Below are positions 38,126-39,784 of a stretch of DNA of 64,000 nucleotides, one piece after another (position 1 is the stretch's first letter; every line of letters begins with the position of its first letter). The translations under genes were made by a program, and so were the position numbers. Below the pieces are notes generated by a model that was given only the letters and a program-made list of their open reading frames with translations, had not been told where the DNA came from and searched no databases. Source of the DNA: Escherichia coli (GTDB lineage: Bacteria; Pseudomonadota; Gammaproteobacteria; Enterobacterales; Enterobacteriaceae); the NCBI RefSeq assembly GCF_024502345.1, contig NZ_JALDNN010000001.1; one strand, given 5' to 3'.

Positions 38126-38481
38126 ATGTAGAGATTATTTTATCGATATATCATGGGGTTATGTTATTCAGCATCACTATTCAGGAGGCTCAATAGCGGG
38201 GTACTATACCATAACAACAGGAAGCGCCTGTCTCATTGCAAAAGAAAATTGAGATCCTCTCAAGGCATGAAGCTCTCACGAAGTGATGGAAATAATCTTA
38301 TTAGCCGTTAACTTTGTTAAGGCCAATGATAAACAATCCAGGTTCGACGATAAATAAAAAATCACACATTAAACTCTGGTGATATATCTCCCTGCTAATA
38401 GCATTGATAGAGAAAAAAGAACCCAATAAATATTGGGTCCTTTTATATAATGCCTTCCATACTATCGAAGAACTTCACATA

Positions 38482-39189
38482 TTATTTCTCCGATTTAACC
38501 CCGAACAAATCATAAATTAATTTAGAAGTGTCTGTAAGTATTTTAATCTCTTCCTTTGAGGTTGGGTCAAACGACTTCGCGAAGCTAATTAATTGTGGTG
38601 CAGCATCTCGCATTTTGCTTAAAATATCAGGATCGAGCGTTCCTTCATTCACCAGATGTGACATCTTATCCAGATAGCCATCAAAATTCATTTCTCCCCC
38701 ATCAGCCAGACGCTTCATCTCTCCCAGGTACTTCTTCATATCACGTTGAGATAATTTTTCAAACTGAGCTTTCAGGTAGCTCTCATTATTTTCATTAATA
38801 TACACTGTTTCTGATAAATCTGCGTAGGCACTAGAATATGAAAGTGAAATTAACAGCGAAGCAAATAATTTTAAGCTGTTGTCATCATGTTCCTGGCAGG
38901 CATTAACAAACGTTAAAAAACCAGAACCTATTGCTTGAAAATGTATATTCGCTAAAGGTTCATTATCCTTAGATTCCTCATAAAATAGCTGAACCGTGGA
39001 GGGAAGGTCATTCTTAGTTTCTACATCAAAAGTACATTGTTCAATGGGCATTGCATCTTTATTATCCCCAGGATTACATATACTATTAATCGCGAAATGA
39101 AAAATAGCCCGGTCAACAACTGATGCAATAAAGTCACGATCGTTTAAATCCTCATCAGTGCAATCGTCAATATACTTATTGACCCACAT
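38482..39189 (-). CDS. yjbM: AT-rich gene of unknown function
   Basis: 235 aa from MWVNKYIDDCTDEDLNDRDFIASVVDRAIFHF...; position between dusA and zur. Confidence 0.7.
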   Translation of the reverse strand: MWVNKYIDDCTDEDLNDRDFIASVVDRAIFHFAINSICNPGDNKDAMPIEQCTFDVETKNDLPSTVQLFYEESKDNEPLANIHFQAIGSGFLTFVNACQEHDDNSLKLFASLLISLSYSSAYADLSETVYINENNESYLKAQFEKLSQRDMKKYLGEMKRLADGGEMNFDGYLDKMSHLVNEGTLDPDILSKMRDAAPQLISFAKSFDPTSKEEIKILTDTSKLIYDLFGVKSEK

Positions 39190-39257
39190 TTTGAGATCAT
39201 TTATTTGCACAATTAAAAACACATTTTTTTACGTGCATGCCATAAATTATGCGTGAT

Positions 39258-39467
39258 TCATTGAATAAACAAATCTATTTTTGCAATAATTATATCCCGA
39301 TGACGCAGCGCTGCATAATCAATAGATTTACCATATATATTATTTAATTTACCTTTGATTGAACCTCTATTATCTAATTTATCTTTGATTGCATCTTCAT
39401 TATCGAATTGATTTGAATTGAGTGTTTTATTAAAGTATCCAGTTGCACCGGGTATTATCTTCAACAT
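39258..39467 (-). CDS. yjbL: small AT-rich gene of unknown function with internal imperfect repeat
   Basis: 69-aa [46 protein letters not shown]...; coding status not independently supported. Confidence 0.5.
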
Positions 39468-39784
39468 GATTCATCTACCTTTTTTGTCGTACCGTGTCCT
39501 CCTTATAATTCTTTTGCCATCTGGTCACTATCAAAAATCGCTCATAATTTCTGAACTACAGGTATGCGTTTAAACCCAGTTAAATAAATAGCGAGTTAAC
39601 TTGAAGCAATTTATTTAAAAATGAATTATTAATTATTATCGTGTTGATAATGGTACGACAAGGCAACATAACACCTTACCTACAAAACAGAAAATCAACA
39701 TTACGGCAACAATAAGGGTTCTCGGTGTTTTTCCTGGAACATGGTAAAGTAAGGACATTCTTAACCCCCACTTTGAGGTGCCCG

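Follow-up and report, generated by a model that had tools for sequence, protein, structure and literature searches.

The DNA analyzed here, from now on referred to as the window, is a stretch of 64,000 nucleotides from an Escherichia coli genome (NCBI RefSeq assembly GCF_024502345.1, contig NZ_JALDNN010000001.1). Between the genes dusA and zur it contains an AT-rich block encoding two open reading frames (ORFs), named yjbL and yjbM. GC content across 38050-39849 is 0.30-0.39 compared with 0.52-0.56 within dusA and zur, and the block is thus AT-rich relative to the genome in the manner of H-NS-type xenogeneic DNA. No publication joining yjbM and H-NS was found in the literature searched. An initial reading of the sequence, here called the original prediction, had described the AT-rich block beside zur, the two co-oriented minus-strand ORFs of 69 and 235 amino acids and an imperfect tandem repeat of about 30 bp within yjbL, all of which were borne out. 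Further, it had proposed an orphan, horizontally acquired and probably H-NS-silenced gene pair, and had mentioned a toxin/immunity-like or accessory function for which it saw no positive evidence. Based on alignment with intact alleles from other strains, the interval covering both ORFs is very likely one accessory gene, belonging to the E. coli-restricted DUF2713 family and dead in the strain analyzed. The features of the locus are compiled in Table 1.

Table 1 Features of the DUF2713 locus in the window and the basis of their assignment.
Feature	Position	Strand	Basis or comment
Single DUF2713-family gene, inactivated (yjbL and yjbM fragments)	38482..39467	-	RefSeq, colinear alignment, Pfam
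'yjbL' ORF, 69 aa	39258..39467	-	N-terminal fragment including the true start codon
'yjbM' ORF, 235 aa	38482..39189	-	Out-of-frame C-terminal three quarters of the gene
Premature stop TGA	39258..39260	-	CGA/AGA (Arg) in other strains; plus-strand A at 39260
A7 homopolymer tract (A8 in intact alleles)	39224..39230	-	Frameshift between 'yjbL' and 'yjbM'
30-bp (10-aa) variable-number tandem repeat	39339..39409	-	Tandem Repeats Finder, shuffles, strain variation
Terminator-like hairpin, 13-bp stem followed by a T run	38415..38444	-	About 40 nt past the stop codon of the gene
Strain-variable AT-rich islet	38032..39717	.	Unrelated 133-bp stretch instead in islet-free E. coli
Attachment-site core GCACCAATGCTCGA	38016..38029	-	Within the dusA 5' end; junction of dusA-integrating prophages
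Element-type dusA 5' end	38030..38119	-	84% identity over 63 nt to the O157 element-borne end

RefSeq annotates one coding sequence, 'DUF2713 domain-containing protein, frameshifted', over the same interval in the K-12 strain MC4100 and in strains 13E0767 and 600468. Three-frame translation of 38482-39467 revealed that 'yjbL' corresponds to the N-terminus of intact proteins and 'yjbM' to the remainder in another frame. The two are colinear, end to end, with single intact alleles of 318-340 amino acids found in other strains, and yjbL and the intact alleles have the same N-terminus. Intact genes are 957 nt long in O157:H7 MB9-1 and Survcare321, 993 nt in GS04, 1005 nt in SX48, 1017 nt in 38A23CPO011 and 1023 nt in PapM-36-2 and 4FM. 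The yjbM fragment scores 555.4 bits (E=1.5e-167) with the Pfam family PF10897 (DUF2713), for which the gathering score is 27 bits, its residues 1-235 being aligned with model positions 1-235; the DUF2713 domain is present in all intact alleles. As in a split pseudogene, both pieces align colinearly and without overlap to one intact orthologue and the lesions separating them can be named.

Two such lesions are found in the window. The premature TGA codon changes the sequence LFIQRITHNLW of other strains to LFIQ*ITHNLW, with position 39260 being A in the window and G in MG1655, MC4100 and 600468. A 60-mer around the TGA has 0 exact matches in 5,426 complete RefSeq E. coli genomes, the complete-genome set used throughout (0 matches at 99% identity or above, best 98.3%), and the stop is therefore private to the lineage of the window within that collection. 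Fifteen codons downstream of the TGA follows the homopolymer tract, which reads CGT-AAAAAAA-TG in the window (A7) and CGT-AAAAAAAA-TG, that is 8 A (A8), in intact alleles of the same type. MG1655 carries only the A7 frameshift and not the TGA, and its annotated yjbL accordingly has 84 amino acids, compared with the 69 that result from the extra stop in the window. The yjbM frame is open to 39222 and encodes 246 amino acids if read from a GTG and 235 if read from the ATG at 39189.

Translation begins at the 'yjbL' ATG (39467) and is ended after 69 codons by the private CGA-to-TGA mutation, and the loss of one A from the A8 run (now A7, 39224-39230) puts the remaining 235-246 codons out of frame. 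These 'yjbM' codons lack a ribosome-binding site of their own. As read from the sequence, a weak Shine-Dalgarno (SD)-like AAGG is located 10 nt upstream of the ATG at 39467 and no SD-like sequence precedes the yjbM ATG at 39189. A promoter scan returned sites no more numerous than in shuffled sequences. The only match of an Rfam scan of 36500-41000 was a sub-threshold one to AbsR28 on the hairpin downstream of the gene (23.6 bits, gathering score 50); it was rejected, and the hairpin, a strong one, was taken as a terminator only.

The state of the homopolymer tract varies across E. coli. In an alignment of 17 alleles, also used for the comparison of the repeat and of allele groups, all 8 of the frameshifted alleles examined, including those of the window and MG1655, have A7 at the same tract. 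A7 is found in the window, MG1655, EC07, STEC17-190, FT130 and others, and A8 in GS04, PapM-36-2, 4FM and 38A23. The A7 alleles form four groups, 10-64 substitutions apart, namely the K-12 type (986 nt), the STEC17-190 type (992 nt) and the EC07 and FT130 types (1022 nt each). EC07 (A7) and PapM-36-2 (A8) differ by 1 gap with 0 mismatches. Exact-word matches over the complete genomes gave 868 genomes for the K-12-type A7 63-mer, 333 for the EC07-type A7 63-mer and 842 for the EC07-type A8 64-mer. Only A7 and A8 were seen at the tract, never A9. Based on these patterns, we infer that the A8 tract is a slippage hot spot at which the gene has probably been inactivated more than once, in different allele backgrounds.

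The state of the gene as a whole was surveyed in 30 genomes sampled at even spacing from the first nucleotide search of E. coli genomes. Seven lack the islet, 8 carry an intact gene, 8 a gene annotated as frameshifted and 1 a gene interrupted by the insertion sequence (IS) IS1; the remaining 6 are K-12-like (at least 99.5% identity) and were not inspected one by one. Roughly a quarter of E. coli are thus without the gene, a quarter have it intact and half have a broken copy. IS1 interrupts the DUF2713 gene in strain R18, and in strain 4FM, where the gene is intact, IS200C is located in the spacer between dusA and the gene (L024 621-1079).

It should be noted that several points weigh against a dead gene with a recurrently slipping tract. 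A low-level 235-amino-acid fragment or a frameshifted full-length protein may be expressed in strains that carry A7 only, such as K-12. Some A7 calls from long reads could be homopolymer sequencing errors; MG1655 plus several independent assemblies make the K-12-type and STEC17-type A7 credible, but the EC07/PapM-36-2 pair is represented by only one assembly each. Finally, in this comparison of alleles, part of the apparent recurrence of A7 could be due to recombination that carried a single A7 patch from one allele to another.

The tandem repeat was identified by Tandem Repeats Finder at 39339-39409 with a period of 30, 2.4 copies, 82% matches and a score of 93. At period 30, 25 of 30 positions match (0.83), a level not attained by a single one of 500 dinucleotide-preserving shuffles of the islet for periods between 24 and 60 (best shuffle 0.75). 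The strongest sign of a true repeat is that its copy number varies between strains: one copy is present in O157:H7 and two divergent allele classes, and three copies are found in EC07, FT130 and PapM, with two copies in other alleles. At the protein level, the repeat corresponds to a unit of 10 residues, located in an N-terminal tail that is predicted to be disordered.

When 5.8 and 1.8 billion proteins were searched by sequence, the DUF2713 family proved to be all but confined to E. coli. In addition, a few distant paralogues (303-426 amino acids, 16-27% identity) were found in E. coli assemblies and gut metagenomes, where they sit on short IS-rich contigs. The orphan status assigned by the original prediction was thus roughly right, apart from membership in PF10897 and these few paralogues. 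The paralogues align from a conserved helix, AKLD.F.Q.IT..LW, to a C-terminal IY.LLG and extend the family beyond the Pfam model; residues K63, W76, L108 and F123 are invariant family-wide, and no conserved catalytic-looking motif is apparent in the family alignment. The PF10897 model (E. coli YjbM) is fitted end to end by the 235-amino-acid fragment. However, its 235 positions cover the truncated K-12 fragment only, the real protein having 318-340 amino acids, and it omits the 'YjbL' part which holds the most conserved helix of the family. A second protein search with a broad profile gave no new distant relatives among the 120 matches listed. Paralogues P0151 and P0153 are absent from the complete E. 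coli genomes at the megablast level, and the contig of paralogue P0149 matches these genomes only via an IS/intron piece. Two scans of 100,044 species-representative genomes returned no confirmed relative, which is weak evidence of absence as each used two short peptide patterns. On the metagenome contig that carries P0149 (ERZ15610516 NODE_7954), a 311-amino-acid protein with ADLRH pentapeptide repeats is encoded 1.4 kb from the paralogue (L010 3842-4777, minus strand). Its N-terminal region is weakly similar to SopD2/SopD and PipB/PipB2, and the contig also holds a KfrA-like gene and group II intron/IS debris.

Over all pairs of eight intact alleles, the ratio of nonsynonymous to synonymous divergence (dN/dS; Nei-Gojobori, pairwise) is 0.35-0.84, and values below 1 over intact pairs argue for a real coding gene. 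Synonymous divergence (dS) reaches 0.84 between three deep allele classes which share about 50% amino-acid identity. This is far above the divergence expected for E. coli core genes. The pattern points to old allelic lineages or repeated import, with the gene apparently under relaxed but real purifying selection.

The structure of the intact protein was predicted by AlphaFold2. An alignment of 19 sequences including the distant paralogues yielded a model with a mean predicted local distance difference test score (pLDDT) of 75.8 and a predicted template modelling score (pTM) of 0.73; the model from 8 close sequences was poor (pLDDT 57). Residues 1-52, which include the repeat, are predicted to be disordered (pLDDT below 36 for residues 1-50), and are followed by three long helices, a small β-sheet (145-176) and a helical C-terminal half. 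No solved structure or viral model resembles the predicted fold to a meaningful degree, and a sequence profile search of the PDB and a search of NCBIfam gave no match. The remote-homology and structure searches that the original prediction had called for thus returned no sequence or fold relatives of known function. According to the model, the intact product is a soluble α/β protein without relatives of known function. Our best guess is that it may be a dispensable host- or phage-interaction factor under fluctuating selection.

Two other accounts of the locus concern the number of genes and the meaning of the tract. Separate, co-transcribed yjbL and yjbM genes forming a toxin/immunity-like or accessory pair would agree with two co-oriented ORFs 68 nt apart, and yjbL and yjbM are still given as two genes or as a two-gene operon in the reference annotation of MG1655 and in a publication from 2025. 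We nevertheless regard this as extremely improbable: in many strains one intact protein lines up with both ORFs, the 1-nt deletion plus the stop codon of the window accounts for the gap separating them, RefSeq treats the interval as one pseudogene and yjbM lacks an SD sequence. Toxin-antitoxin and toxin-immunity systems consist of two independently translated, co-conserved genes, and intact strains have one ORF. PADLOC gave no match to a defence system either, with 0 families in PADLOC-DB 2.0 for two divergent intact alleles at E<=1. The gene pair of the original prediction, whether toxin/immunity-like or not, therefore does not hold up against the intact 318-340 amino-acid proteins, and yjbL is no independent gene, which in substance refutes the original prediction on its own terms. 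A different possibility is a contingency gene for which the A8/A7 tract and the 30-bp repeat serve as functional switches. A7 strains including K-12 would then be reversibly OFF or would express the gene by slippage, with the full-length protein in one variant being partly made via -1 ribosomal or transcriptional slippage on the A run. The locus does have a simple-sequence tract within an ORF with in-frame and out-of-frame lengths among close relatives. One local haplotype is common with both lengths (333 A7, 842 A8), the EC07 and PapM-36-2 alleles are otherwise identical, A7 occurs in at least four allele backgrounds, the copy number of the repeat is variable and the gene, with dN/dS below 1, is kept in many lineages.

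Such a switch nevertheless appears unlikely, as a run of 8 nt is short by the standards of classical phase variation, A9 is not seen in addition to A7 and A8, homopolymer sequencing error confounds the counts, and other inactivations (the TGA of the window, the IS1 of R18) fit plain decay. In the window, the TGA upstream of the tract makes the OFF state irreversible by slippage alone. Shared with known simple-sequence contingency loci are a homopolymer that is in frame and comes in ON and OFF lengths among near-identical alleles, and an in-frame 30-bp variable-number repeat; the difference is that the tract here has only 8 nt, the likeness being one of sequence. If the switch were real, which we consider doubtful, DUF2713 would be an E. 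coli-specific contingency gene turned on and off by slippage at A8, with a novel fold and a repeat-variable disordered tail, and the K-12 'yjbL-yjbM' would be its OFF state. Divergent alleles (dS up to 0.8) could then be kept by fluctuating host or phage selection, the product being, for example, a secreted effector or a phage-exclusion factor consisting of one gene. The single decayed gene remains our preferred reading, and overall the locus is one of ordinary gene decay plus a mildly interesting on/off homopolymer tract.

The islet containing the gene is itself variable. In about a quarter of complete E. coli genomes the islet is absent and dusA directly adjoins zur. Its edge (38031/38032) abuts the attachment-site (att) core within dusA. 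Matches from O157:H7, BS15R-A and PSJ-23 start at query base 17, which is window position 38016, and the host dusA flank ends exactly at 38016 in all 47 prophage contigs found in IMG/VR. Within 5 kb, the window differs from MG1655 by 36 single-nucleotide polymorphisms and is thus not K-12; the strain is not among the complete genomes, where its best match has 99.7% identity over 8 kb (35000-43000), and it may conceivably be of Shigella origin. Across the islet, 2 of 1,686 positions differ from MG1655, compared with about 34 differences in the roughly 3.3 kb of flanks compared. This low divergence of the islet relative to the flanks suggests that it may have been shared by recent recombination.

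Elements encoding dusA-specific integrases insert in the dusA 5' end and restore the gene with a copy of their own (Farrugia et al. 2015, PMC4482086). O157:H7 provides an active example of such an island at this very site, with a prophage remnant of about 10.7 kb between dusA and the islet (L014 36548-47314) that carries a tyrosine integrase, three DUF1076 genes (NleG-type) and tail-fibre genes. In this strain, 105 nt of a K-12-type dusA 5' end remain next to the DUF2713 gene, and the element-supplied dusA 5' end encodes MHDNHEAQKINQTSVMPEKTGVYWNSRFSV. The dusA 5' end of the window is 84% identical to this element-supplied end over 63 nt (E=2e-14), and the same type is found in the IMG/VR contig L065 and in a Shigella flexneri fragment (P0198). 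Islet-free E. coli, Salmonella enterica (MQPETQSSA[FL]...) and other enterobacterial fragments have a short dusA N-terminus. The presence of the short type in Salmonella and other enterics argues that it is ancestral and that the dusA 5' end of the window is of mobile-element origin. In O157:H7 MB9-1, espX5, annotated as a type III secretion system (T3SS) pentapeptide-repeat effector (L014 15062-16354), is located about 32 kb from the DUF2713 gene, with no link established between them.

We hypothesize that an element integrated at the dusA attachment site, and that its integrase and the original dusA 5' fragment which it had displaced were lost afterwards. What survives of it would be the substituted dusA 5' end, a 356 bp spacer, the DUF2713 gene and about 250 bp, with the gene representing the surviving cargo of an old mobile element. 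The islet is thus probably the scar of an old dusA-integrated element, rather than a member of the dusA island family. It shares with these islands the insertion point at the conserved dusA 5' site and the element-type replacement of the dusA 5' end. It differs from them in having neither an integrase next to dusA nor a displaced ancestral dusA fragment with an imperfect direct repeat at the far end, and, at 1.7 kb and with one gene, can be at most a decayed scar. These absences weigh against the scar as well. No integrase remnant was detected (O157 integrase in a tblastn search of 38000-39800, best E 1.1), the 356-bp spacer holds no ORF of integrase size, and a Smith-Waterman comparison of the 133-bp ancestral segment with the islet found no displaced dusA fragment or distal repeat, the best alignment being 13 of 14 nt at about 38202. 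On the dusA strand, 38190-38215 reads TGGTATAGT followed by GC-rich ACCCCGC and resembles an extended -10 element with a GC-rich discriminator. The otherwise unrelated dusA upstream region of islet-free strains has 14 nearly identical nucleotides, TGCTATAGTAGCGCCCCC, matching at 13 of 14 positions, and the putative element-derived leader seems to mimic the core of the native dusA promoter. The horizontal acquisition put forward by the original prediction thus agrees with a foreign-looking, strain-variable block, while the acquired 'pair' has to be replaced by a single gene.

A more recent connection to phages would make the gene cargo, a so-called moron, of a currently mobile prophage integrating in dusA. 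In line with this, the PHROGs families phrog_29005 and phrog_28007 match the two halves of the gene, which is found on 47 IMG/VR viral contigs. However, in 44 of these contigs the gene starts with the first base of the locus, and the remaining 3 have it within about 1 kb of a contig end. In all 47, the gene is followed by host spacer and a displaced dusA 5' fragment ending at the att core, before any phage DNA begins. As the gene is always on the host side of the att core, the IMG/VR predictions overshoot the prophage boundary, and this overshoot explains both PHROG families. With 0 matches in 50,697 phage genomes and the gene present in strains without a prophage at dusA, active phage cargo has next to no likelihood; the 47 contigs show instead how heavily the adjacent att site is used. 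The intact protein could also be imagined as a substrate or effector of a T3SS that decays where there is no working injectisome. Its first 50 or so residues are disordered with no acidic residue among the first 22, the sequence has no signal peptide or membrane segment, alleles evolve fast, and the gene is intact in O157:H7, which is positive for the locus of enterocyte effacement (LEE). On an IS-rich contig, paralogue P0149 is located 1.4 kb from a PipB2/SopD2-like pentapeptide-repeat gene, which is a weak match. We consider this function improbable.

Plasmids do not appear to carry the family: among 72,556 plasmid records no genuine plasmid carries DUF2713, all matches being chromosome-sized or artefactual records. 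One small match, a 17-kb Klebsiella oxytoca record (NZ_CP069917.1), carries K-12-like yjbL/yjbM and looks like E. coli DNA. The 'yjbJ-yjbK-yjbL-yjbM' genes reported beside blaSHV-12 on a Klebsiella plasmid (PMC7319535) were set aside as other genes, as no true plasmid carries DUF2713. Likewise, the 'yjbM motif' riboswitch candidate concerns an unrelated (p)ppGpp synthetase.

The identity of the interval is already known in that the RefSeq pipeline labels it a frameshifted DUF2713 pseudogene. No publication mentioning DUF2713 was found in the literature searched. Nor did we find earlier accounts of the recurrence of the A8/A7 state, of the changing copy number of the 30-bp repeat, of an islet edge that falls on the dusA att site or of a dusA 5' end of the element type. 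The A8/A7 recurrence, the repeat variation, the att coincidence and the dusA 5' end are modest additions to known kinds of events. Other K-12 split pseudogenes annotated as two genes are similar in that a 1-nt homopolymer indel splits the frame and intact orthologues exist elsewhere. This locus differs from them by a tract for which both states are frequent throughout the species and by the additional private nonsense codon of the window.

The main value of these findings is a practical correction, as yjbL and yjbM are still treated as two genes. Results from knock-outs, expression measurements or 'gene age' analyses for yjbL or yjbM concern fragments of one pseudogene, and the DUF2713 Pfam model, built on a truncated fragment, misses the conserved N-terminal helix. 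The locus further provides a compact example of a mobile-element scar rewriting the dusA 5' end, together with homopolymer slippage and repeat copy change, at a hot spot of prophage integration. Should the on/off pattern turn out to be under selection, it would offer a handle on an E. coli-specific protein family without known function.

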